A DNA stretch of 20,000 nucleotides from an uncultured virus (IMG/VR IMGVR_UViG_3300036790_000345) (Duplodnaviria; Heunggongvirae; Uroviricota; Caudoviricetes): the IMG/VR virus record IMGVR_UViG_3300036790_000345; one strand, written 5' to 3'. Below, piece by piece: positions 1 to 10,709 of this stretch (positions within the stretch are counted from its first letter, which is position 1; each line of letters begins with the position of its first letter). The notes under the pieces are model-generated. The model had not been told where the DNA came from and did not search any database. It saw nothing but the letters and a program-made list of their open reading frames with translations. The position numbers and the translations under genes were made by a program.

Positions 1-149
1 ATCCCGGCGGCCAGCACCGCCTGGACGACGGTTGCCGGTGCGGCTTTTGCGGTGGCTGGGAGGATGCGGGCGAAGGGTACTGGAGCGACGCCATGACCCG
101 TCAGCTTGAGATCGACGCGGGCATCACCAGGGAGGACGGCGATGGCTGA
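1..149 (+). CDS. 3' end of a hypothetical phage protein (partial)
   Basis: Frame 3 is open from the window edge (...DDGCRCGFCGGWEDAGEGYWSDAMTRQLEIDAGITREDGDG*). Its TGA at 147-149 overlaps the next ATG at 142. Confidence 0.5.
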   Translation, partial: PGGQHRLDDGCRCGFCGGWEDAGEGYWSDAMTRQLEIDAGITREDGDG

Positions 150-459
150 CACCGTCGCCGGGTTCGCCTCGTTCGCCCTGGACCGCCTCGGCGAGCACTT
201 CCCCGGCCACGCCGCCGACCCGGCCCAGCATCTCCTCAAGCTCGGCGAGGAGTACGGGGAGCTGACCGGGGCGTGCATGCGCTACCTCGGCCGCTCCCGC
301 CGCGCCGGGACGCTGGAGGAGGTAGCCGCCGAGGCCGCGGACGTGCTCATCACCCTGCACATCCTCGCCGCGTCCCTGGGCATCGACCTGGACGCCGCGT
401 GGAGGGCCAAGGCGGCCGTGATCGCGGGCAGGCCGTGGCGGGAGGCCGGCGGTGAATGA
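142..459 (+). CDS. MazG-like nucleotide pyrophosphohydrolase
   Basis: Contains KLGEEYGEL...EEVAAEAADVLITL, the EExxE...ExxD all-alpha NTP-PPase motif, followed by LGIDLDAAWRAK. GGAGG RBS precedes ATG 142. Confidence 0.85.
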   Translation: MADTVAGFASFALDRLGEHFPGHAADPAQHLLKLGEEYGELTGACMRYLGRSRRAGTLEEVAAEAADVLITLHILAASLGIDLDAAWRAKAAVIAGRPWREAGGE

Positions 460-604
460 TCACCCGTGTGTCGGACCGCACTTCCGCACCATCCGGGGCC
501 GGATGATCTGCCAGTGCGGGTGTGAACGCTGCTCCGCCGACAAGCGGTACTGCACCTGCACGGGTTGCCAGTGCCGGAAGGACGAGGACCACGACGATGC
601 CTGA
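452..604 (+). CDS. Small Cys-rich protein (50 aa, not in ORF track)
   Basis: GTG 452 follows GGAGG (441-445) and overlaps the MazG stop. Sequence (M)NDHPCVGPHFRTIRGRMICQCGCERCSADKRYCTCTGCQCRKDEDHDDA has 9 Cys. Confidence 0.6.
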   Translation: MNDHPCVGPHFRTIRGRMICQCGCERCSADKRYCTCTGCQCRKDEDHDDA

Positions 605-630
605 CTACCCGGCACCGGATGGAGGCTGTG

Positions 631-1137
631 ATGGCTGAGCCTTGGCCGAAGACAATCCCCGACCCGGCAGACCCTTCCGGGCTGGCCAGCCTGCCGATGC
701 CGGACGAGATGGCTCGCGCAGACCAGTACGTCCCGTCCCGGGCCGAGCTCGACAATGAGGCCTACCTGGTGTCCCGCGGCGTCCGCCCGCTGGCCCTGGC
801 CGGCCACTACCCGGCCGTCCCGCTGGTCATGTGCCGGGTGAAAACCCTGCTGCACCGGGCCCGGCAGTCCGAGCTGGTGATCCCGTTCATTTTCGCCGAG
901 GGCGGCGACCCTGGCTCCGCAGCGTTCGGCTACGCCTCGCACCGCTGGTGCATAGACCTGCTGGAGTGGGCCCTTGACGGCGGCGTGCCGCCGGACCGCA
1001 AGCACGAGATCCTCGGCCTGCTGCTCGGCTACTCGCCGTCATCGATAGCACGGCACCAGGAACGCGGCGAGCTGTGGGCGTACCGGGACGAGGACGAGCG
1101 CGATAAAAATTCCAAGATCAGGTTCCCGGCAAGATGA
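631..1137 (+). CDS. Hypothetical protein with HEILGLLLGYS motif
   Basis: Part of ORF 565..1137; ATG 631 follows a GGAGG RBS. Its stop overlaps the effector ATG (ATGA 1134-1137). Confidence 0.65.
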   Translation: MAEPWPKTIPDPADPSGLASLPMPDEMARADQYVPSRAELDNEAYLVSRGVRPLALAGHYPAVPLVMCRVKTLLHRARQSELVIPFIFAEGGDPGSAAFGYASHRWCIDLLEWALDGGVPPDRKHEILGLLLGYSPSSIARHQERGELWAYRDEDERDKNSKIRFPAR

Positions 1138-2804
1138 AGGAGGCTGGAGTCATGAGCGAACACGCTGAACGCGACGTGCCTCTCATGCGAGCCTTCGCGT
1201 ACGGCTGCCCGGCACGCGCTGACCTGGACGACGCCGGCATCCGCCAGCTCCGGCTGGCGAACCAGCTGTGGAACGCGCTGGTGGAGGCCGAGCACGCGCA
1301 CGAGGACGCGAAGGCCGCGATCTGGGGGCGTGACCCGCGGGTCGCCGCCGCGCAGGAAACGCTCGCCGCCGCGCAGCAGGCCGCGGATGAGATCCGGGAA
1401 CGGATACGCGCCAGCCGGCAGGCTGACCGGACCACGGTGCCCCGTGACGGCGACAAGTCCGCCCTCGCGGCTGCGTCCTCGGCGCGCAGGGAGGCGAAGA
1501 CGGCGCTGGACGCCGCGCGGCAGGCTGCGCTGCCCGGCCTGCGGGAGGCGTTCGGCGAGGCGAAAAAGGCCCGCGCCGCCGCGCACAAGGCCCTGTACAA
1601 GACGTTCGTGCAGGAGAAAGGGCTCGGCTGGGGCACCCACAATGACATCGTGCGCCGCCGGTTTCCTGCTGCGGTGGCGAAGGTGGAGGAACGCCGCAAG
1701 TCGGGCCTGCCCGCGCAACTGCGGTACAGGCGGTTCGATGGCACGGGGACGCTGACGGTGCAGGTTCAGCGGCAGGCCGGGCACCCGCCGCGCACCGTCC
1801 CGGCGCTGAACAGCGGCCGGCACCCGCAGTCCGGTGTCCTGGCCCTGACCCCGTGGCAGGACATGGCAGGCCGGCCGAAGGGCGCTGCGCGGCACGGCAC
1901 GCTCACGGCCAGGATCGGCCGCGGGCGCGGCTTTGACCCGTTGCGGCTGGAGATCCCCGTGGTGCTGGACCGGTACCTGCCGGCGGGCGCGGACGTGTGC
2001 GAGGTGAAGATCAGCCGCCGGGTCACCGGCACCCACGCCCGGCTGTCAGTGTCGGTCGTCTGCCAGGTTCGCGAGCCCGCGCCGCGCGGCGGCCACGCTG
2101 ACGTCGCTGTGCGTCTCGGCTGGAAGTCGGCCGGGGACGGGTGGACCGAGGTAGCGCACATCGGCAGCAGCGACCCGCTCCCGGCACCTCCTGCTGCCAT
2201 TGCCGCGATCACTCGCGTCAGCGGGGACGGCCTGTCAGCGGACGTGCTGTACCCGGCCGAGTGGCGGAAGCTGCTCGAGCGGGACGCGGCCATACGGTCG
2301 GTGCGTGACCAGGATCTGGAGCCGGTGCGGGACAAGGTGACTGTGGCGCTGCGGCAGGACGCCGTGCTTGCGGAGTCCCTGGGCGTGACCGCGGGTGAGG
2401 TGTCGCGGTGGCGGGCACCGCGCAGGTTCGCGGTTCTGGCCCGGTCGTGGCCGGCCGGGCACGAGCTGGCGCCCGTGCTGGAGGAGTGGCGGCGGCGGGA
2501 CAGGCACCTGTACGACTATGAGGCACACGAGCGCGCCCAGGTGACCGCCCGGCGGCGGGACGCGTGGCGGTGCGTGGCGGCGTGGCTGTGCACCGCTGCC
2601 GCCGGGGTCGCGGTTGACGGCCTGGACGTGGCCGCGCTGAAACGCGAGCCGGATGTCAGCCGCGAGGATCCAGAGCAGGCCCGGCGCGGCCGTGCGCAGA
2701 TGCACGCCGCGGCTCCCGGCGAGCTGCGCGCCGCTGTCCTCGCGGCGGCGAAGGCCAGGAAGATACCGGTTACCGTGATACGCAGGAGAAAGGACGAGAC
2801 GTGA
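1134..2804 (+). CDS. cas12m: Cas12m-like type V-M (V-U1) CRISPR effector, predicted nuclease-dead, C-terminally truncated
   Basis: 556 aa. Motifs QLRLANQLWNALV, a long Ala-rich coiled coil, LRYRRFDGTGTLTVQVQRQAGHPPRT, RYLPAGADV, VAVRLGWKS (RuvC-I), WRAPRRFA, VAVDGLDV (RuvC-II) and AAPGELRAAV run colinear with my recollection of Mycolicibacterium mucogenicum Cas12m (e.g. LRHHRFDGSGTIAVQLQRQAGAPPRT, VALHLGWRS, AAPGGLRASV). A CRISPR array is nearby. Alternative start is ATG 1152 with a GGAG RBS. Confidence 0.85.
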   Translation: MKEAGVMSEHAERDVPLMRAFAYGCPARADLDDAGIRQLRLANQLWNALVEAEHAHEDAKAAIWGRDPRVAAAQETLAAAQQAADEIRERIRASRQADRTTVPRDGDKSALAAASSARREAKTALDAARQAALPGLREAFGEAKKARAAAHKALYKTFVQEKGLGWGTHNDIVRRRFPAAVAKVEERRKSGLPAQLRYRRFDGTGTLTVQVQRQAGHPPRTVPALNSGRHPQSGVLALTPWQDMAGRPKGAARHGTLTARIGRGRGFDPLRLEIPVVLDRYLPAGADVCEVKISRRVTGTHARLSVSVVCQVREPAPRGGHADVAVRLGWKSAGDGWTEVAHIGSSDPLPAPPAAIAAITRVSGDGLSADVLYPAEWRKLLERDAAIRSVRDQDLEPVRDKVTVALRQDAVLAESLGVTAGEVSRWRAPRRFAVLARSWPAGHELAPVLEEWRRRDRHLYDYEAHERAQVTARRRDAWRCVAAWLCTAAAGVAVDGLDVAALKREPDVSREDPEQARRGRAQMHAAAPGELRAAVLAAAKARKIPVTVIRRRKDET

Positions 2805-3334
2805 TGACAGGCCAGATACCGTCCGGGTCGATCGGGCAGCAGCTCCGCGAGGCGCTGAAGGCGGGCGCGACGCCGGAGGATGCGGTCCGCAAGGTGCTCG
2901 GCCCGTTCGGCGCGGTTCTCGCGGAGGCAGGCAATGATCACCTGGTCGGGTATGCGCGGCCGGCGGTGCTGTCGGAGGCGCGGCGGCTGGGCCGTCAGCT
3001 GATCCGCCGGGCGGAGGACCGGTCGTTCGGCGCGGCGCCGGCGTCGCGGGACCGGATGCGGCTGGGGCAGATCGAGTTTCACCTGCCGGATGGCCAGGTG
3101 GTGTCGTGGGCGGATGCGACAGCGGAGCAGCACGGGGCGCGTATCGCGTGGCTGCGGACGTATATCTCCAGCGTGGAGGAGGACCTGGCCCGTCATGAGC
3201 GGGCGGCGAAGCTGCTGGCTGAGCATGGCGCGGCGAAGCTGTCCGACATCCCCGGGTGGGAGGATCTGATCGGCGACGACGCGGACAGCGAAGACGCGGA
3301 TGACGGGGATGCGAGCGCTGAGGCGGTAGCCTGA
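2801..3334 (+). CDS. Hypothetical 177-aa protein between effector and array, acidic C-terminal tail
   Basis: GTGA overlap with the cas12m stop and an upstream AGGAG/AAGGA RBS. Mostly helical-looking sequence with FHLPDGQVVSWADATAEQHGARI and tail DDADSEDADDGD. Confidence 0.8.
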   Translation: MMTGQIPSGSIGQQLREALKAGATPEDAVRKVLGPFGAVLAEAGNDHLVGYARPAVLSEARRLGRQLIRRAEDRSFGAAPASRDRMRLGQIEFHLPDGQVVSWADATAEQHGARIAWLRTYISSVEEDLARHERAAKLLAEHGAAKLSDIPGWEDLIGDDADSEDADDGDASAEAVA

Positions 3335-3478
3335 AAGCCGGGGAGCGCTCGCACGCAGGTCAGGGCGGGTATTGCGCATCTTGACAACTGAACGTATGAG
3401 CGAAAAGGTGTTCGCGGAACGGTCCGCTCGCAGTGGTCCCGCATACCCGCAGGCCAGGTGCCCCGTATTCTGCGAGCC
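3335..3478 (+). promoter_or_regulatory. CRISPR leader region with candidate promoter elements
   Basis: Non-coding and less GC-rich. Contains TTGACA at 3381-3386 and TTGCGC(3372)-N17-TATGAG(3395); neither gives a perfect -35/-10 pair. It lies at the end of the array where repeats are invariant. Confidence 0.5.
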
Positions 3479-4395
3479 GTCGCTATGCCGGCGCAGAGGC
3501 TTCGTATCTGCGAGCGTTGAGGTATTCAGATCGGGCCGATCTGGCGTCCCGGTCGCTATGCCGGCGCAGAGGCTTCGTATCTGCGAGAGGCCCTCCAGCG
3601 TGGAGGCCAGCTCGTCGTCGATGAGTCGCTATGCCGGCGCAGAGGCTTCGTATCTGCGAGAGGCCCTCCAGCGTGGAGGCCAGCTCGTCGTCGATGAGTC
3701 GCTATGCCGGCGCAGAGGCTTCGTATCTGCGAGCGGATCTACGACGTGCTACCGGACGACGAGAAGATCATGTCGCTATGCCGGCGCAGAGGCTTCGTAT
3801 CTGCGAGGATATCAGCTGCTGGCAGTGCGGCCCGGTGTGCGCGGGGTCGCTATGCCGGCGCAGAGGCTTCGTATCTGCGAGGCATCGGTTAGTGCCGTGG
3901 CGGCCGGTCGCCAGCACGTCGCTATGCCGGCGCAGAGGCTTCGTATCTGCGAGTAGTCCACCTTCACGGCTCGCTGGTCGACGTACATGAGGTCGCTATG
4001 CCGGCGCAGAGGCTTCGTATCTGCGAGGGGGGCAAGGCCCATACGCCTGCCTCGACTCGGACGACGTCGCTATGCCGGCGCAGAGGCTTCGTATCTGCGA
4101 GACATCCACTCCGTGAGGTCGGCGCTCGCTAGCTCGCGTCGCTATGCCGGCGCAGAGGCTTCGTATCTGCGAGATGTCGGAGACCGGGGTGACGCGCAAC
4201 TCCGGCTTCGTCGTAATGCCAGCGCAGAGGCTTCGTATCTGCGAGCTGTTGATGTGGCCCACCGCGTCGGCGATCTTGTCGATGTCGTCGCTATGCCAGC
4301 GCAGAGGCTTCGTATCTGCGAGGTACAGTGTGGTGCAGGGGGCGTCTCCGACTCGCAGAGTCGTAATGCCAGCGCAGAGGCTTCGTATCTGCGAG
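3479..4395 (+). CRISPR. CRISPR array: 13 repeats of 36 bp (GTCGCTATGCCGGCGCAGAGGCTTCGTATCTGCGAG) and 12 spacers of 36-41 bp (11 unique)
   Basis: Repeats start at 3479, 3552, 3625, 3698, 3772, 3846, 3918, 3992, 4066, 4138, 4210, 4287 and 4360. The first 10 are identical; the last three carry variants (GTCGTAATGCCAG..., GTCGCTATGCCAG...). A CGCAGA/TCTGCG hairpin ends 2 nt before each spacer. Orientation is inferred from distal degeneration and hairpin position. Confidence 0.98.
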
Positions 4396-4429
4396 AAGCC
4401 AGCTATCCGCGCGATCCATCAAGATCATC

Positions 4430-4759
4430 TTGTCGCAGGTGGACGACGAGGCACTGGCCGCCTTCGGCCGCAGCCTCACTGCCCAGATGGAAGGCGTCCA
4501 GGAATGGATGCGGCAGGCCTTCCATCTGCTCGCCCGCGCGGTCGCCCGGGCCGCAGACGACACGGGCAAGATGCTCGCCGCGGCGTTCAGCTACACCTGG
4601 GACGACCGGCTGCACTATCACGCCCCGGACGCACCCCGCCGGGTGCTTCGCCGCTGCCGGGCCTGTCACCCGGAGGGCAACCCGCTCCCGCTGGCCGTTG
4701 ACGGCAGGGGGTACCGGCGGCGGCAGTCAGCTCGCAGGCGGCGCGGCAGAGGCCAGTGA
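4430..4759 (+). CDS. Hypothetical phage-like protein, possibly a 5'-truncated remnant
   Basis: Coding-like codon usage with a CRACHPEGNP motif and a basic tail. Only a TTG start without an RBS; the frame is open back into the last repeat. Confidence 0.45.
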   Translation: MSQVDDEALAAFGRSLTAQMEGVQEWMRQAFHLLARAVARAADDTGKMLAAAFSYTWDDRLHYHAPDAPRRVLRRCRACHPEGNPLPLAVDGRGYRRRQSARRRRGRGQ

Positions 4760-5701
4760 TGCGGCCAGAGCGTAAACGGGGGAGTGGTCAAGCCGGGAGC
4801 GCATCCGGTCGTAGCGCTCGGTAGTCCGCGGGTCGACGTGGCCGGCTAGCGCCTGCACGTCCCGCAGTGAGCAACCGCGCTCGAGCGCCTCGGTCAGCGC
4901 CGAGTGCCGCAGCGAGTGGGGATGCAGCGCATTCGCCTGCGGCAGTTTCGCCCGCACTGCGATGCGGCGGATCAGCCGGTACAGGCCCGGCTCGTCAAGA
5001 CGCCCGCGGCCGCCATCGCGCGGCGAGGTCGCGAAGAGCGGGCCGTCAATGCGCCCGTCCAGGTAGGCGTCCAGCACGACGCCGACCCACGGCGCGACCG
5101 GCAGGTGCTGGCGCCTGCCGCCCTTCCGGGTGACCGTGAGCACCCGGTGGCCCCCCGTGTGGCCTAGGTCGTTCACATCTGCCGCGAGTACCTCGGTGGT
5201 CCGCGCCCCCGTGGTCAGCATCACGGCGGCGAGGGCGTGCGCCCGGCGCGAGTGCGCCTGGGCCGCCTCGAGGAACGCGACCATCTCCTTGCGGTTCAGC
5301 CACGAGATCGTGTCCTCGTCCTGCTGGCGCTTCGGCCGCTTCATCTCCTTGATCGGGTTGGCTTCCATGTCGCCGGTCTCTGCGGCGTAGCTGAAGAACG
5401 ACGACGACGACGACAGCCGCCGCGCGATGGTCGCCTCGGAGACCGCCCGCGAGCCGTCTTCGCGAACTGTGCGGCGCATCGACTCGGCCCACGCCGCTAC
5501 CTGCCGCCGCGTCGCCGCGAGGACGCTGGTGCCGTGCTCGCCGAGGAATGCCGCGAGAAGCCTGATGTCCTTCGCGTACGCGGTGCGCGTGTTGGCGCCC
5601 GGGTGCTCGAGCAGCCATCCGGTGATGGCGCTCAGGGAGTCGCTGTCTGCGGCGATGACGGCGAGCGCGTCAGGCTCGGCCGCGGCGGGCAAGATCGTCA
5701 T
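4727..5701 (-). CDS. XerC/XerD-like tyrosine recombinase
   Basis: N-terminal SAM-like segment (NTRTAYAKDI...SEATIARRLSS...NP) and a full catalytic set: TGAR, RKGG, HSLRH, AGH and TTERY. No arm-binding N-terminal domain is evident. Confidence 0.92.
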   Translation of the reverse strand: MTILPAAAEPDALAVIAADSDSLSAITGWLLEHPGANTRTAYAKDIRLLAAFLGEHGTSVLAATRRQVAAWAESMRRTVREDGSRAVSEATIARRLSSSSSFFSYAAETGDMEANPIKEMKRPKRQQDEDTISWLNRKEMVAFLEAAQAHSRRAHALAAVMLTTGARTTEVLAADVNDLGHTGGHRVLTVTRKGGRRQHLPVAPWVGVVLDAYLDGRIDGPLFATSPRDGGRGRLDEPGLYRLIRRIAVRAKLPQANALHPHSLRHSALTEALERGCSLRDVQALAGHVDPRTTERYDRMRSRLDHSPVYALAASLASAAPPAS

Positions 5702-5703
5702 GG

Positions 5704-5732
5704 ATGACAGAGTAACAGGAATTATCCTGCAT
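5704..5732. promoter_or_regulatory. dif/XRS-like tyrosine recombinase site
   Basis: ATGACAGAGTAA-CAGGAA-TTATCCTGCAT: imperfect 11-12-bp inverted arms with TAA/TTA inner ends around a 6-bp core, 2 nt upstream of the recombinase ATG. Confidence 0.65.
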
Positions 5733-5807
5733 ACTCCGGAGCGCTGTAGCGCGTCTCTAACCAGCCGCTAGCACTGTTCGCTGCGCAGTCCCGATAGCCT
5801 TTGATCC

Positions 5808-6038
5808 ATGCGGCAGGCCGATCTCGCGGTGATCGCGCAGACCCGTGACGATCTCGCGTCGGGCCGGGCACGGGCGGCGAGGAATGAGGCCAGGATCACC
5901 CAGGCCGAGTTCGCTTCGGTGCTCGGCGTGCACCGGTCCGCGGTCAGCCACTGGGAGTCCGGCCGGTCCGTTCCCTCCGCGCCTCACGCCCTGGCCTACG
6001 GCAGGCTGCTGCGTCAGCTCGGGAAGAAGGCGGCATGA
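5808..6038 (+). CDS. XRE-family helix-turn-helix regulator
   Basis: RAARNEARITQAEFASVLGVHRSAVSHWESGRSVP is a canonical Cro/C1 HTH. Divergent from the tyrosine recombinase. Confidence 0.88.
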   Translation: MRQADLAVIAQTRDDLASGRARAARNEARITQAEFASVLGVHRSAVSHWESGRSVPSAPHALAYGRLLRQLGKKAA

Positions 6039-6078
6039 TGGCCCTCGTCTGCCCGGCAGGCCGCTGCCCGTGCCTCAG

Positions 6079-7680
6079 CTAGACGGGGATGCCGGAGTGC
6101 CCCGGCCCCTGCCATGGCGGTTCCCAGGCGGGGAACACCCGGGCATGGCAGTCCTGCCCGTCCTCGCCGCGCCATGCCACCACCGAGAGGATCAGGCCGG
6201 CCAGCGCGTTCCGGGCCCGGTCCGGGCGCATGGTGTCCCACTCGTCCAGCAGTGTGCGGATGACCGGGTGCACGTCGGGTGCCATGCCGCCGGCCCGCTG
6301 CTGCTCGCGGGCCAGCAAGGTGACGATCCGCTCCCGCTCGGCGAGCAGCTCGGCTCTCGCCCCGGCCCATGCCCGCGCGGGGACGTCCTCCTCGCGTGCC
6401 TGCCGGGCCAGGAGCCGGGCCAGTTCCCGGTCCTTCTTCGCGAGCTCGGCCTCCAGCTGCCCGGCGCTGGCCCGCGCGGCGGAGACCGCCGCCCCGGCCG
6501 CGGCCAGCCCCTGCTCGCCGGCGAGGCGGATGTCCTCGGCGGCGAGCCACGCCAGGACGGCGCCGAGGACGGCGTCGTAGCGGACGCCCCGCCCTCGCGA
6601 GGGACAGTCCTTGTACCGGTCCCAGCGGGAGCACCGCGCCAGCGTCCGTGCCGTGCCGTGCGAGATCTTCAGGACGGCCTTCGCCCCGCAGTGCCCGCAT
6701 TGCAGGAGGCCGGTCAGCGCGTAGCGGGGCGCGCGGGAGCGCGGCGGGGTGGCGCTGACCGCGGCGCGCCGGCGCAGGTACGCCTGCCATTCGGGGGGGC
6801 TGATGACAGGCTCGTGGGCGCCGGCGAGCAGGACCGTGCGTGAGCAGCGGGCCGCCTTGCCGCAGCCGCACGCCGGGTCGTGGACGCGCAGGTACCCGGC
6901 GCCGAACCCGGAGTCGAGGGTGCGCCGGACAAGGTAGGGCGCCCACCTGGTGCCGCGGGTGTTGCGGATCCCCGCGTCGTTGAGCACGGCCGCGATGACG
7001 GCCGGCTGGTCGCCCCGGATGTAGGAGAGGTACATCTCGCGCAGCACCGGCCCGGTCAGCGGGTCGTGCTCGTACCGCTCGCCGGCCGGGTCGGCGGTGT
7101 CGCGGCGGGTGCGGCGCGGGTTCTCGGGATCGGGAACCCGGCCCTTGCGCTCGTAGCCGAACCGGGGCCGGGCCGAGCCGGGCAGGCCCGCGTCGTGGCG
7201 GTGCCGGTGCGCTTCTTTCCACTGCTCGCCGGCCCGGTTGGACTCGAATACGGCGATGTCGAAGAGCATCGAGCGGGTCAGCTGGCCGACCGCGGTCCGG
7301 GCGTCGACGTCCTCGGTGGCGGAGATGAGCTGGCCGCCGGCGTCCTCGACGCGGCCCAGGTTCTCGGCTATGCCGCGGGCGTCGCGGCCGAACCGGCTGT
7401 ACTTCCAGACGATGATCTCGCGGGCTTCCCCGGCTTCGACGCGCTCGATCACCTTCATGATCTTGCGCTTGAAGTTCCTGCCCGTCGCGTCGAGGTCGGT
7501 GACCCAGTCGACGATCCGCCGGCCGTGGACGCGGGCCCAGTTCAGCCCCGCGGCCTTCTGGACTTCAGGGGAGATCGCCTCCTCGCGCCACATCGAGACG
7601 CGTATGTAGCCGATGGCGGGGACCAGGTCCGGGAAGGTAATATCCTGCGCTGTTTCGCGCGTCTTATCCTTGCCGGCCAC
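6079..7680 (-). CDS. Large serine recombinase (phage integrase), about 533 aa
   Basis: GYIRVS catalytic Ser motif, WKYSRFGRD, recombinase domain (PRFGY...LNDAGIRNTRGTRW...GAHEPVIS), zinc ribbon (LTGLLQCGHCG...RC...C) and coiled coil. Start taken as GTG 7680; the ORF-track extension to 8169 is probably spurious. Confidence 0.93.
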   Translation of the reverse strand: MAGKDKTRETAQDITFPDLVPAIGYIRVSMWREEAISPEVQKAAGLNWARVHGRRIVDWVTDLDATGRNFKRKIMKVIERVEAGEAREIIVWKYSRFGRDARGIAENLGRVEDAGGQLISATEDVDARTAVGQLTRSMLFDIAVFESNRAGEQWKEAHRHRHDAGLPGSARPRFGYERKGRVPDPENPRRTRRDTADPAGERYEHDPLTGPVLREMYLSYIRGDQPAVIAAVLNDAGIRNTRGTRWAPYLVRRTLDSGFGAGYLRVHDPACGCGKAARCSRTVLLAGAHEPVISPPEWQAYLRRRAAVSATPPRSRAPRYALTGLLQCGHCGAKAVLKISHGTARTLARCSRWDRYKDCPSRGRGVRYDAVLGAVLAWLAAEDIRLAGEQGLAAAGAAVSAARASAGQLEAELAKKDRELARLLARQAREEDVPARAWAGARAELLAERERIVTLLAREQQRAGGMAPDVHPVIRTLLDEWDTMRPDRARNALAGLILSVVAWRGEDGQDCHARVFPAWEPPWQGPGHSGIPV

Positions 7681-7693
7681 GAACCCAGAGTAT

Positions 7694-7739
7694 CGTCTGT
7701 TTGGGAACGTTGTCGAACGACAACGTTCCCAAACAGACG
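7694..7739. repeat. Perfect 22-bp inverted repeat with central AA; candidate attP of the serine integrase
   Basis: CGTCTGTTTGGGAACGTTGTCG-AA-CGACAACGTTCCCAAACAGACG, 13 nt upstream of the integrase start. The palindrome is directly seen; the attP role is inferred. Confidence 0.7.
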
Positions 7740-7770
7740 GCCCGCGAATGTGCGCCCGAGGGGGGATCCG

Positions 7771-8001
7771 ATGACCACCACTGCCCTGCCGTTCATCTGC
7801 GCGAACGGCCTTACCCGCGCCCAGCGCGCCGGCCGGGCCTGCGCCTTGCCGGACTGCCGCCGCCGCTTCCGCCTCAGCACCTCGTCCTCGCCGCGGGTTA
7901 TCGGCGTCACCACGGGAGGTCGGCCGGTCTGCGCGTGCGCGGACCACGACCTGGCCCTGGTGCTGGAGGCCGTGCCGCTGATCTACGGGGCTGCCCTGTG
8001 A
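7771..8001 (+). CDS. Small Cys/His-containing hypothetical protein (76 aa)
   Basis: ATG 7771 follows GAGGGGG. Contains CALPDC...VCACADH. Divergent from the integrase. Confidence 0.55.
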   Translation: MTTTALPFICANGLTRAQRAGRACALPDCRRRFRLSTSSSPRVIGVTTGGRPVCACADHDLALVLEAVPLIYGAAL

Positions 8002-8183
8002 AACCGGGCACCAGCGAGGGCGGTTTCGCTGCCCGTCAGCGGGCCGGCCTTGACGTGCTCCGCGCCCTGTCCGCCGCGCAGGCGCTCGAGCGTTTCGCGT
8101 CCGCGGACACGGATCTCCTGAACGTCCCGCGCCCGGGTTATCCCGGGCGCGGGCGGCACACAAGATCAACGAAAGGAACCATT

Positions 8184-8975
8184 GTGCGCAAGCTAATTCT
8201 GACCGCTATCACCGGAGCTTTCACGACGGGCCTCGTCCTGCTCGGCATGATGCCCGCCGGGGCGGCGGTCACGCACCCGAAACCGCAGCTGCGGTTCGCC
8301 GCGTCCGCCGCCCCGCCCGTCGCGAAGACGCACACCATGACCACGAAGATCTACCTGAACCCGGACTCCGGCGACGCCGGCAACACGTGGGCTCTCGACA
8401 CCTTCGTGCGCGTGGTCACCATCACCCGCTCCGGCGGGAAGCGCGGCTACGAGTACGCCGGCGGCAAGTGGCAGCCCTACCCGGTGAGCGACTGCGGCGG
8501 CGGCATCCGCTGCTACCACTACACGTTCACCATCGAAGACACCGGCCGCGCCGCCGTCATCGCCGGCCAGCAGTCCCCGGGCAAGTCCCAGGGCGAGTTC
8601 GTGAACCTGGACGTGGCCGAGAACGCGCAGATGGGCGGCGGCACCAGTGACGGCCAGTTCTTCTCGTCCTACAAGAACGAGTACGCGAAATACTTCCCGG
8701 TGAGCATGGACGAGAACGGCGTCCCCGCAACCGGGAACTACACCACGGGCAACTGGGTGATGCTCGGCCAGCCCGGCGCCCACTTCCAGGACGTCAGCCT
8801 CGGTGCCAGCGCCGGGTGGACGTACATCGTGCCCGCGGGCCGGGACGCCCGGTGCCCCGCCTACAAGGGCACGTGGATCGACTCGTTCGCCGACGGATGG
8901 GGCGTGAACCCGGACTCGGGGAACGTCCTGGCGCCTAACGCGGCCGACTGCGCAGCCCAGTCGGGCACCGGCTGA
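8184..8975 (+). CDS. Secreted hypothetical protein (about 263 aa)
   Basis: GTG 8184 follows an AAAGGA RBS. Signal peptide (M)RKLILTAITGAFTTGLVLLGMMPAGA-A; the mature part is Gly/Thr/aromatic-rich with 4 Cys. Confidence 0.75.
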   Translation: MRKLILTAITGAFTTGLVLLGMMPAGAAVTHPKPQLRFAASAAPPVAKTHTMTTKIYLNPDSGDAGNTWALDTFVRVVTITRSGGKRGYEYAGGKWQPYPVSDCGGGIRCYHYTFTIEDTGRAAVIAGQQSPGKSQGEFVNLDVAENAQMGGGTSDGQFFSSYKNEYAKYFPVSMDENGVPATGNYTTGNWVMLGQPGAHFQDVSLGASAGWTYIVPAGRDARCPAYKGTWIDSFADGWGVNPDSGNVLAPNAADCAAQSGTG

Positions 8976-8981
8976 CAGCCG

Positions 8982-9028
8982 TCCCGGGCGCGGCGGCGGG
9001 ACCTAACGATGTGCCGCCGCGCCCGGGA
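8982..9028 (+). terminator. GC-rich stem-loop after the secreted protein gene
   Basis: Perfect 16-bp stem TCCCGGGCGCGGCGGC / GCCGCCGCGCCCGGGA with a 15-nt loop, 6 nt after the stop. Confidence 0.6.
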
Positions 9029-9053
9029 TTCCCGCCCGGGGAAGGGAAACCGC

Positions 9054-9233
9054 GTGACATCGCTGCGTGTCCTGCTGGCGCGCTTGTTCTCGCCCGCGGA
9101 CTGGAAGGTCAGCCGCATCGCCAGCCTGAACCGGTGTGACCAGTGCGGGTCAGGCGAGCGGGCCAGTTTCCGCGGCGTGCCCGTCTGCGGCCGGTGCGGG
9201 GCGCTGTGGCGGGAAAGGCAAGGTGCCCGGTGA
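9054..9233 (+). CDS. Small zinc-finger-like protein
   Basis: GTG 9054 follows GAAGGGA. Contains CDQC...CGRC. GTGA overlap with the next gene. Confidence 0.55.
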   Translation: MTSLRVLLARLFSPADWKVSRIASLNRCDQCGSGERASFRGVPVCGRCGALWRERQGAR

Positions 9234-9340
9234 TCGCCGTCATGTGGTGCGCCGCGGTGGTGCTGCTCGTCGCTGTGGTCATCATCGCCGCGCTGGCGCG
9301 GCTCATTGCCCGGTACATCCGGTACGCACTGGCATCATGA
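9230..9340 (+). CDS. Small single-pass membrane peptide
   Basis: (M)IAVMWCAAVVLLVAVVIIAALARLIARYIRYALAS; coupled by a GTGA overlap. Confidence 0.45.
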   Translation: MIAVMWCAAVVLLVAVVIIAALARLIARYIRYALAS

Positions 9341-9387
9341 GATTGACCCCGGGACTTCCCGGGCGCCGCCGGGCTTCCTCCTTTCAC

Positions 9388-10709
9388 CAAAACCCCCCGG
9401 AGGATGCCTCGGCCTTCAGGCCGGGGAGGAATCCGGTGCCCGCGCGCAGCGCGGCGTTGTGGTCTTTACAGTCCATCGCACTATCCTGTAAGGGTGCGGA
9501 CGGCGTACCGGTGCCGGGCCTATCCCGACGCAGACCAGCAGGTCATGCTGGCCCGCACGTTCGGATGCGTCCGCGTCGTGTGGAACCGCACCCTCGCCGC
9601 CCGCCACGCCCGCTACGCCGCCGAGCGCAAGGGCACGTCCTATGCGGAAACCGACAGGGCGCTGACCGCGATGAAGAAAGACCCGGACCTGACGTGGCTG
9701 AACGAGGTGTCCTCGGTCCCGCTGCAGCAGGTCCTGCGCCACCAGCACGCCGCTTTCCAGGCATTCTTCGGCAAGCGCGCCCGCTACCCCCGGTTCCGCT
9801 CCCGGCGCGGCAAGCAGTCGGCGCACTTCACCCGGTCGGCGTTCACCCTGCGCGGCGGCGTGCTGCGGCTCGCCAAGACCGCCGCGCCGCTGCCGTTCGC
9901 ATGGTCGTGGCCGGATGCGGACTTGGCCGCGCTCGAACCACTCATGGTCATCGTCTCTCGCGAACCAGACGGCCGCTGGTACGTGACTTTTACCGCCGAT
10001 GTCGCTGCGCTTGAGCCGCCGCCGGAAACAGGGCGCGCCGCAGGCGTGGACCTGGGCGTGAAGGACTTCGCGGTGACCAGCGACGGCCAGAAGATCGCGA
10101 ACCCTCGGCTGCTGGAGCGCAAGGCCCGGAACCTGGCTCGCTACCAGCGGCGGCTCGCCCGCTGCCAGCGCGGCTCCGCGAACCGGGTGAAGGCGAAGAT
10201 GAAGGTCGCCCGCGCCCACCGCAAAGTGCGCCACGCCCGGCAGGACTTCTTGCACCGGGCCAGCGCCAGCCTGGTCCGCGATAATGATGTGATCGTGATC
10301 GAGGATCTCGCCGTGCGCAACATGGTCCGCAACCGGTCGCTGGCCCGTGTCATTTCCGACTGCGGGTGGGGCGAGTTCCGCCGCCAGCTGGAGTACAAGT
10401 GCGAGCGATACGGTCGCACGCTGGTCGTCATCGACCGCTGGTACCCGTCCAGCAAGACCTGCTCGGCGTGCGGGCACCTGCTCGCCGAGCTGAGCCTTTC
10501 CACCCGGACGTGGCGCTGCCCGTCCTGCGGCACCCGGCACGACCGGGACCACAACGCCGCGAAGAACATCCTGGCCGCTGGTCAAGCGGTTACTGCCTGC
10601 GGAGTTGATGTCAGCCATTCCGGGACCTCCCGGGTGCAGTCGGCCGTGAAACAGGAACCCTGGCCGGTGACGGCCGGAATCTCCGTCCTTCAGGGCGGGG
10701 AGTAGTCAA
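9388..10709 (+). mobile_element. IS200/IS605-family element, TnpB-only (IS1341-type)
   Basis: Left end TCAC|CAAAAC followed by GATG and hairpin CCTCGGCCTTCAGGCCGGGG. Right end has GAAT and hairpin CTCCGTCCTTCAGGGCGGGG ending in TCAA (10706-10709). No tnpA between the ends. Confidence 0.82.
9494..10705 (+). CDS. tnpB: RNA-guided endonuclease TnpB
   Basis: N-terminal AYRCRAYP...LARTFGCVRVVWN, RuvC GVDLG / VIEDL / DRDHNAAKNI, and zinc finger CSACG...CPSCG. GTG 9494 lies 6 nt after TATCCT, a possible leaderless start. Confidence 0.95.
   Translation: MRTAYRCRAYPDADQQVMLARTFGCVRVVWNRTLAARHARYAAERKGTSYAETDRALTAMKKDPDLTWLNEVSSVPLQQVLRHQHAAFQAFFGKRARYPRFRSRRGKQSAHFTRSAFTLRGGVLRLAKTAAPLPFAWSWPDADLAALEPLMVIVSREPDGRWYVTFTADVAALEPPPETGRAAGVDLGVKDFAVTSDGQKIANPRLLERKARNLARYQRRLARCQRGSANRVKAKMKVARAHRKVRHARQDFLHRASASLVRDNDVIVIEDLAVRNMVRNRSLARVISDCGWGEFRRQLEYKCERYGRTLVVIDRWYPSSKTCSACGHLLAELSLSTRTWRCPSCGTRHDRDHNAAKNILAAGQAVTACGVDVSHSGTSRVQSAVKQEPWPVTAGISVLQGGE

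Follow-up and report, generated by a model that had tools for sequence, protein, structure and literature searches.

For base and epigenome editing, Cas12m is valued as a compact DNA binder that is nuclease-free by nature. The accounts of type V-M CRISPR (short palindromic repeats that are clustered and regularly interspaced) systems on which we draw describe Cas12m as silencing by binding, and all RuvC triads reported in them have three positions. For Cas12m2, the structural description consulted (PMC10442227) assigns the TNB zinc finger to H549, C552, C569 and C572 and the RuvC triad to H317, D485 and D579. The non-target strand is described there as running to the groove between RuvC and TNB, with the RuvC triad forming the site that binds it. 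Removal of the TNB from PmCas12m is reported to abolish or strongly reduce activity. Here we describe a Cas12m locus in a stretch of 20,000 nucleotides (nt) from an uncultured virus (IMG/VR record IMGVR_UViG_3300036790_000345), which we call the window. Judged by its sequence, the locus appears to be of type V-M, its effector being truncated and accompanied by a protein of a new family. The associated protein, of 177 amino acids (aa), is encoded between cas12m and the array and is referred to below as the partner; it is very probably a functionally linked accessory gene of Cas12m. Coordinates are collected in Table 1.

The effector is a Cas12m relative lacking the C-terminal module. It matches the PADLOC profile Cas12u1 with E 3.4e-97, covering profile positions 4-487 of 533. 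In the Protein Data Bank (PDB), it matches Cas12m2 (8hhl) with E 3e-59, query residues 34-550 lying on chain residues 22-543 of 598, and the GoCas12m entry 8pm4 with E 2.6e-57. The AlphaFold2 model of the effector has a mean local confidence (pLDDT) of 86.4 and a global template-modelling score (pTM) of 0.77, and its last predicted element is a β-strand at 546-549. In VIA-align, the model superposes on GoCas12m 8pm4_A with Z 27.8 and a root-mean-square deviation (rmsd) of 3.5 over 535 aligned residues, and on Cas12m2 8hhl_A with Z 27.5 and rmsd 3.6 over 536 (chain 1-548). The predicted fold is thereby consistent with the WED-REC1-REC2-RuvC architecture of Cas12m. Since the alignments stop at Cas12m2 residues 543-548, before H549, the effector is without the TNB, the final helix of RuvC and the third residue of the triad, in agreement with the loss of a C-terminal domain suspected in an earlier note on this DNA. 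No CxxC is present in the last 95 residues of the effector. The first triad position is R327 (VAVRLGW vs VALHLGW), invariant in all four aligned sequences, and the second varies among the aligned effectors, being Asp in the window and His in one related locus (L005). A three-position RuvC triad of the HDD, DED, NDD, HEK or similar type is not found in this effector. In the available account of another miniature Cas12 (bioRxiv 10.1101/2025.01.20.633832), the zinc finger is inserted between β5 and α5, which fits an effector that ends after β5. Silencing by binding, and not cutting, is its most likely mode of action.

The truncation is shared by a whole group of effectors. We inspected the C-terminal residues of 32 homologues. 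No CxxC was present in the last 95 residues of 26 of them; 25 of these end a few residues past the conserved AAPGELR...GIPVT strand, and the remaining one (P0199) has an unrelated tail. The other six, which are more distant sequences, retain the TNB, with H..C...C..C plus DQDxNA. In a midpoint-rooted FastTree phylogeny of 37 sequences, from which the partial P0199 and P0200 were left out, all 29 TNB-less effectors fall into one clade nested among eight TNB-bearing ones. The tree places the origin of the truncation in one lineage. The effector alignment (25 sequences) has 36 invariant columns.

In the loci examined, the partner is strictly linked to TNB-less Cas12m. A partner homologue is found in all eight TNB-less loci, which comprise the window, five soil-type metagenome loci (L001-L005) and two viral contigs (L019, L020), and in neither of two TNB-bearing relatives (L021, L006). 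All five metagenome loci have a CRISPR array with related repeats just 3' of the homologue. A full TNB-less Cas12m lies 5' of it in three of them; in L003 and L004, where the contigs are short, such a protein is represented by its C-terminal end alone. A scan of viral contigs with the effector profile gave three loci, L019, L020 and L021. In the first two, the effector is TNB-less and both a homologue and an array of related repeats are present, whereas in L021 the effector bears the TNB, the array follows directly and there is no homologue. The effector scan of genome contigs gave a single distant locus, L006, in a Chloroflexi genome. Its effector bears the Cys cluster and the D..N motif and is thus TNB-bearing, and no homologue or array was found within the 6.9 kilobases (kb) searched around it. 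Seven or eight further effector/partner pairs seem to share contigs, to judge by the equal lengths of the longest contigs recorded for both proteins, a hint that we keep outside the count.

The two genes are also joined at their boundary. In the window, the junction sequence ends in ...GACGAGACGTGATGACAGG, where the GTG start of the partner and the TGA stop of the effector have four bases in common (GTGA), and the purine-rich GGAGAAAGGA lies immediately 5' of it. Seven of the eight loci retain such an overlap of stop and start (GTGA, ATGA or TGATG), with purine-rich sequence in front of it. Pairwise identities of effector and partner correlate with r = 0.84 (15 pairs, six loci), which speaks for co-inheritance only. 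The two open reading frames (ORFs) 5' of cas12m, a MazG-like ORF and orf190, form an operon-like row with it but have no counterparts in the related loci, and therefore the conserved module consists of cas12m, the partner gene and the array. The earlier note had read the GTGA junction as coupling, had put the gene forward as a candidate accessory protein of a truncated, dead Cas12m, and had suggested counting how often homologues neighbour truncated cas12m and arrays; the shared bases, the eight loci against the two, the conserved overlap and the correlated identities bear this out.

Three side observations concern the genes of these loci. The orf190 reading frame has a strong coding signal, shares an ATGA overlap with cas12m and has no family match. 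The partner homologue of L004 is split over two frames, through either a frameshift or an assembly error. The effector of L001 contains an insertion of ~72 aa at residues ~250-325 with CxxC...CxxC motifs, which matches DnaJ-type zinc-finger and anti-TRAP models weakly (E 1.7e-4); the other effectors are without this insertion.

The 177-aa ORF is real and under long-term constraint. Its GC content by codon position, 0.79/0.50/0.86, is like that of the real genes of the window (69.6% GC). A word-indexed search gave 24 close homologues with 46-88% identity, every one unnamed or "hypothetical". The alignment of these with the window record (25 sequences) has 23 invariant columns, which include F93, P96, V101, W103, H111, R114, W117 and D128, as well as R131-H132-E133-R134. 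An Arg ladder (R61, R62, R65, R69) is conserved on the helix at 47-77. The motif that the earlier note had written as FxLPDGxxVSWxxATxEQH is present at residues 93-111 as FHLPDGQVVSWADATAEQH and is conserved. The helical body which that note had expected is also seen in the AlphaFold2 model built from the 25 sequences (pLDDT 89.2, pTM 0.67), with predicted helices at 11-20, 25-42, 47-77, 83-90, a long one at 108-142 and a short one at 153-157. The only modelled β-hairpin, at 92-102, would bear the conserved motif. The tail at 166-177 is acidic and disordered in the model, and it ends in a semi-conserved DASGEVVP-like motif. With a net charge of -11 over the last 25 residues, the tail is as acidic as had been claimed. 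The proposed opposition of this tail to a basic effector C-terminus is weak and does not hold as a general rule. RRRK is indeed the effector C-terminus in the window, but it is not conserved, and the net charge of the last 12 effector residues in six loci is +2, +6, 0, -2, -2 and -1. The net charge of the whole effector ranges from +12 to +36 across the six.

Known families offer no match for the partner. Searches of Pfam, PHROGs, NCBIfam and PADLOC with the 177-aa protein gave no usable match, the best in PHROGs having E 0.11. No Cas1, Cas2 or Cas4 family appeared at E ≤ 1 in Pfam, NCBIfam or PADLOC, and no sigma or helix-turn-helix (HTH) domain was found by Pfam or NCBIfam; fold searches listed no such domain near the top, although weak fold matches of this kind are compatible with one. 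The earlier impression that the protein resembles neither Cas1, Cas2 or Cas4 nor a sigma factor agrees with these searches. In a PDB sequence search with the profile of the partner family, the best match was HU (E 0.39, not significant). The best fold match in BFVD was an unnamed phage protein with E 0.083, and the top ranks there are uncharacterised Mycobacterium phage proteins (probability 0.72-0.96, TM-score 0.32-0.45). A wide VIA-align search with the partner model reached Z 5.1 at best, which is within noise for helical models. Protein searches found no close relatives of the 177-aa protein in genome contigs or viral contigs, and tblastn with it found none in the phage and plasmid collections. 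Searches with P0049 against the phage collection and with P0057 and P0029 against viral contigs returned nothing. With the effector, tblastn of the plasmid and phage collections gave distant Cas12m/TnpB-like matches only, the plasmid locus L022 among them.

The possibility that the partner is a split-off C-terminus of Cas12m was rejected. Against eight TNB/RuvC tails (C-terminal 85 residues), hhalign gave probabilities of 0.1-0.2%. The 177-aa protein contains no cysteine. Having neither cysteine nor profile similarity to the lost tail, the partner is not just the lost segment supplied by a gene of its own.

The partner is one member of a broader family of phage proteins. An exhaustive HMMER search gave 293 cluster representatives at E ≤ 0.001 and 36 at E ≤ 1e-10, mostly 140-200 aa long. 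No Cas12m-sized fusion with the partner family was present among the best 150 of the 293; the long matches in that set (406, 550 and 4010 aa) are multi-stretch, repeat-like ones. None of 46 family members scanned has a meaningful Pfam family. Five of the 46, distant members, weakly match phrog_4604 (function unknown; E 0.0012-0.0097), which the window protein itself does not match. In a protein-language-model atlas, the clusters nearest to the partner are unnamed, and 80-92% of their content is viral. To find phage members in viral contigs, we back-translated the FxLPDGxxVxWxxAT...H motif into two IUPAC patterns. These hit eight distinct contigs, giving seven true members (E 1e-20 to 3e-40 against the hidden Markov model of the family) and one chance match (L014).

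These stand-alone members sit in neighbourhoods of DNA recombination and replication. In L009, the family member lies between a Rad52-like annealing protein and an exonuclease, and in L008 it is near an SNF2 helicase and an AAA_24 protein. In four of the seven contigs (L007, L010, L011 and L012), it lies directly 5' of a ~285-aa phrog_4285 protein annotated "transposase". The phrog_4285 proteins have no Pfam match; we take their GxGEH..ARLLG motif and C-terminal helices to resemble the C-terminal domain of the IS110 transposase without its DEDD domain. The family member and the phrog_4285 protein may form a two-gene phage module.

In a midpoint-rooted FastTree phylogeny of the partner family (182 tips, 14 of them with genomic context), the seven partner genes with Cas context fall into one clade of 62 tips with a support of 0.88. 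This Cas-linked clade holds all of the seven or eight putative further pairs and none of the seven stand-alone phage members. In the simplest history, a Cas12m locus would have captured a phage gene once, in the lineage that also lost the TNB. Two members of the Cas-linked clade, P0041 (269 aa) and P0044 (321 aa), have 100-150 extra N-terminal residues with a C...CxHC / C...CGHC cluster.

We propose that the partner is a clade-specific accessory gene of a V-M variant, a recruited phage protein that joins the effector complex and takes over the role of the TNB/RuvC end. We give this reading as a whole an even chance of being right; its narrower element, that the partner specifically compensates for the lost TNB/RuvC end, falls slightly short of even. 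According to this proposal, one phage- or prophage-borne Cas12m lineage lost everything after RuvC strand β5: its TNB zinc finger went, and so did the final RuvC helix, on which the third active-site residue lies. Also in this lineage, a gene from a family of ~150-aa helical phage proteins came to stand directly behind the effector, 5' of the leader. Translational coupling would allow the partner to be produced in step with the effector. The partner would then enter the complex of Cas12m and CRISPR RNA, where it could hold the displaced non-target strand or close the nucleic-acid channel in place of the TNB/RuvC end. The R-loop would stay locked, and target transcription or replication would be blocked. 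We infer that the partner physically binds the effector, contacts nucleic acid through the conserved Arg-rich helix with R61, R62, R65 and R69, and makes up for the missing domain. Its acidic tail may dock on the strongly basic effector or on another factor. A bolder and more tentative form of the proposal is a two-subunit class 2 effector, in which a captured phage protein of unseen fold would supply the TNB/RuvC function in trans. Such a subunit may, in addition, link the bound target with a factor of phage recombination or replication.

Several observations weigh against the proposed replacement of the TNB/RuvC end. No Cas12m or CRISPR array was found near any of the seven stand-alone phage members within up to 8 kb (L011 and L018 reach the contig end before 8 kb). 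The native job of the family thus needs no Cas12m in these seven loci, and the gene could be mobile cargo. The partner has no sequence likeness to the lost TNB/RuvC tail by hhalign, and a Foldseek search of the PDB with its model gave nothing at E ≤ 0.001, so that an activity is not readable from the fold. Co-divergence of effector and partner is expected for any two adjacent genes. In L020, coupling is broken: the cas12m stop is separated from the partner gene by two repeats and one spacer, and the partner gene, with a GGAGG ribosome-binding site of its own, has repeats on both sides and the main array 157 nt later. The small share of tips with genomic context in the partner tree counts on the same side, as does the search of sequencing runs, which gave no RNA run with the locus. 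One soil-metagenome DNA run carries 0.80 of the sampled words, and a second run a small share. The earlier note had named homologues in non-CRISPR phage contexts as evidence against an accessory role and had allowed that the gene may be an ordinary phage gene. Such contexts do occur in the wider family, in all seven stand-alone loci. Since these stand-alone members lie outside the Cas-linked clade, "ordinary phage gene" describes the origin of the gene and not its present state.

Two other explanations stay attractive. According to the first, which we consider unlikely, the partner provides a new output: Cas12m would bring it to the target, where it would recruit or block a factor of host or phage DNA transactions (a nuclease component, for instance, or one of recombination or replication), in parallel to other dead Cas12 and TnpB proteins with partner genes. 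The setting of the phage relatives near Rad52-like, exonuclease, phrog_4285, SNF2 and AAA_24 proteins would suit such a role, and the disordered acidic tail with its DASGEVVP-like end is as expected of a docking peptide. A pairing of Cas12m with Cas3 is reported in the source consulted (PMC10910872). However, the partner has no recognisable catalytic or interaction domain, and there is no third conserved gene, as the related loci have neither orf190 nor the MazG-like ORF. Nor does this reading explain why the gene goes with the truncation.

The second explanation concerns the sequences 3' of the partner. As the earlier note had stated, the leader directly follows the 177-aa gene and is itself followed by the array. 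The repeat of the array is GTCGCTATGCCGGCGCAGAGGCTTCGTATCTGCGAG, with a spacing of 72-77 nt. Three variant repeats lie among the last four, at the far end of the array, which places the leader on the side of the 177-aa gene. The array, adjacent as in V-M systems, starts 144 nt 3' of the partner gene. The leader is unusually conserved among the eight TNB-less loci, with two copies of GCTCGC...GCAGGYCAGG and a TTGACA box at ~3381-3386. A repeat-like element at ~3441-3476, ending in CGTATTCTGCGAG, stops 2 nt from the first repeat; this element may represent a repeat that has degenerated, an RNA with a regulatory role or a site for binding. A simple scan of 400-4700 found no sigma-70 consensus promoter, and an Rfam scan of the CRISPR locus found no family. 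Spacers 2 and 3 are identical, a repeat-spacer unit having been duplicated. Protospacers were not found in the loci examined (best matches 12-16 nt), and megablast of the spacers against the phage and plasmid collections gave no targets.

The partner could accordingly be a regulator that binds the leader elements or the effector transcript and sets the expression of cas12m and the array. This would suit a prophage that needs to restrain a DNA-binding silencer. The gene adjoins the two conserved leader elements and the repeat-like one, its Arg-rich helices are conserved, and integrase and repressor genes adjoin the system both in the window and in L020. In addition, for type IV / V-M loci of plasmids, a figure legend of a review (PMC11656645) names a gene labelled "tr. 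regulator". On the other hand, neither an HTH nor another DNA-binding family was detected, the match to HU being insignificant; the phage relatives occur in recombination/replication modules and not beside CRISPR leaders; and the restriction of the gene to TNB-less effectors is left unexplained. We therefore regard regulation as quite unlikely.

That the partner is a phage gene with a role of its own, for example as an anti-defence or recombination helper, inserted in the 3' end of cas12m and inherited by adjacency only, beside a truncated effector that is decaying or works alone, is improbable in either form: the viral, Cas12m-free loci of the wider family, its viral atlas clusters and the repeats around the L020 gene, as if it had been inserted in array DNA, are in its favor, but it fits poorly because the two genes co-occur in eight of eight loci across deep divergence with conserved coupling, the pair persisting from 88% to ~31% partner identity with both frames intact and spacers varied, the effector keeping its invariant columns and a confident fold, and no TNB-less locus being without the gene.

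The surroundings indicate that the locus is carried by a phage or prophage. On the 3' side of the array, the window encodes first a tyrosine integrase, then an HTH protein and a large serine recombinase, and then a transposase, with many small unannotated ORFs beyond them. Two different integrases thus stand side by side after the array in one element (4727-8169). On the opposite strand of the transposase gene, the Rfam family Sernc389, an antisense small RNA of Saccharopolyspora, is matched over its full length with 125.9 bits, which hints that the host may be an actinomycete related to the Saccharopolyspora group. Among the related viral loci, L019 has tail fibre, holin and endolysin genes, in L020 the integrase and repressor genes adjoin cas12m, and L021 sits in a replication module. 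V-M systems are described as enriched on plasmids and present in some prophages too, in the review consulted (PMC11656645).

Table 1. Positions of the features of the Cas12m locus in the window and of features in related sequences.
Sequence	Feature	Position	Strand	Description
Window	MazG-like ORF	106-459		
Window	orf190	565-1137	+	190 aa
Window	cas12m variant without TNB zinc finger and last RuvC helix	1134..2804	+	556 aa, TGA stop
Window	Coupling junction	2787..2804	+	Purine-rich Shine-Dalgarno-like run, then GTGA, the partner start overlapping the effector stop
Window	177-aa Cas12m-associated gene (partner)	2801..3334	+	GTG start; listed ORF
Window	Leader	3335..3478	+	144 nt; alignment of eight leaders (window, L001-L005, L019, L020)
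Window	CRISPR array	3479..4395	+	13 repeats of 36 nt, 12 spacers of 36-41 nt (11 distinct)
Window	Spacers 2 and 3	3588-3624, 3661-3697		
Window	Tyrosine integrase	4727-5701	-	
Window	Small HTH protein	5808-6038	+	
Window	Large serine recombinase	6079-8169	-	
Window	Transposase	9404-10705	+	phrog_506, E 2e-128
Window	Sernc389 match	9683-10275	-	
L001	Effector	1458-3542	+	
L004	Partner homologue	783-1302		Frames 783-956 and 976-1251
L020	Repeats and spacer before the partner gene	7597-7747		
L007	phrog_4285 protein	6969-7829	-	
L010	phrog_4285 protein	6973-7827	-	
L011	phrog_4285 protein	6988-7860	-	
L012	phrog_4285 protein	8378-9487	+	

If the proposed replacement of the TNB/RuvC end by the partner is correct, the locus would represent a new V-M sub-variant with a new family of Cas proteins, and it would be an example from nature of a Cas12 domain replaced in modular fashion. 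A lineage without the TNB that always carries the same partner suggests a second subunit or a new way of stabilising or using the R-loop. The capture of a phage family of unknown function by a CRISPR system would also give a first handle on its role across ~290 sequence clusters, and the question of the partner can be reduced to two genes and a minimal array. The parts of the Cas12m literature covered by our search (PMC11013384, PMC10442227, PMC12669027, PMC10910872, PMC11656645, PMC12607003, bioRxiv 10.64898/2026.03.26.714355 and 10.1101/2025.01.20.633832) mention neither a TNB-less Cas12m clade nor a conserved gene between cas12m and the array; Wu et al. 2022 (Mol Cell) and the supplementary tables of the papers covered, outside that scope, could list such loci.

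The locus resembles type V-M, represented by MmCas12m, Cas12m2, GoCas12m and PmCas12m, in an effector related by sequence and fold, in an array of 36-nt repeats on the same strand, in having no adaptation genes among the ORFs scanned, and in its carriage by a mobile element or prophage, as described for V-M in the review consulted (PMC11656645). In the available accounts, the known Cas12m effectors consist of a single protein, which has a TNB zinc finger and a triad of the H/D/N-D/E-D or HEK/HQK type. Here, in contrast, the TNB and the third triad position are absent, the first position is Arg, and a second gene precedes the array. The weak family matches to the partner, phrog_4604 and the unnamed actinophage proteins, have no known CRISPR link.

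Two further groups of systems are comparable in their use of a partner. Cas12k with TniQ, TnsC and S15, TldR, and Cas12m-Cas3 are, like the present pair, dead Cas12 or TnpB proteins with an output through partner genes. Their partners as described differ in that their families are known (transposition proteins, Cas3), where the dead protein does not act as a repressor by itself; in these descriptions, none is a ~170-aa protein of the present family or accompanies a loss of the TNB. The Cas12 "hacker" (Cas12p), entries of which (PDB 9jfs/9jg3) are among the fold matches of the effector model, is likewise a phage-encoded miniature Cas12 that is reported to need a small, separate bound protein to be fully active. 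Its partner, TrxA, is a host housekeeping enzyme encoded outside the locus, and the effector is described as keeping its zinc finger and DED triad and as cutting DNA (bioRxiv 10.1101/2025.01.20.633832). By analogy, the Cas12 "hacker"-TrxA pair and the Cas12m-Cas3 association appear to be the nearest precedents for the Cas12m-partner pair described here.

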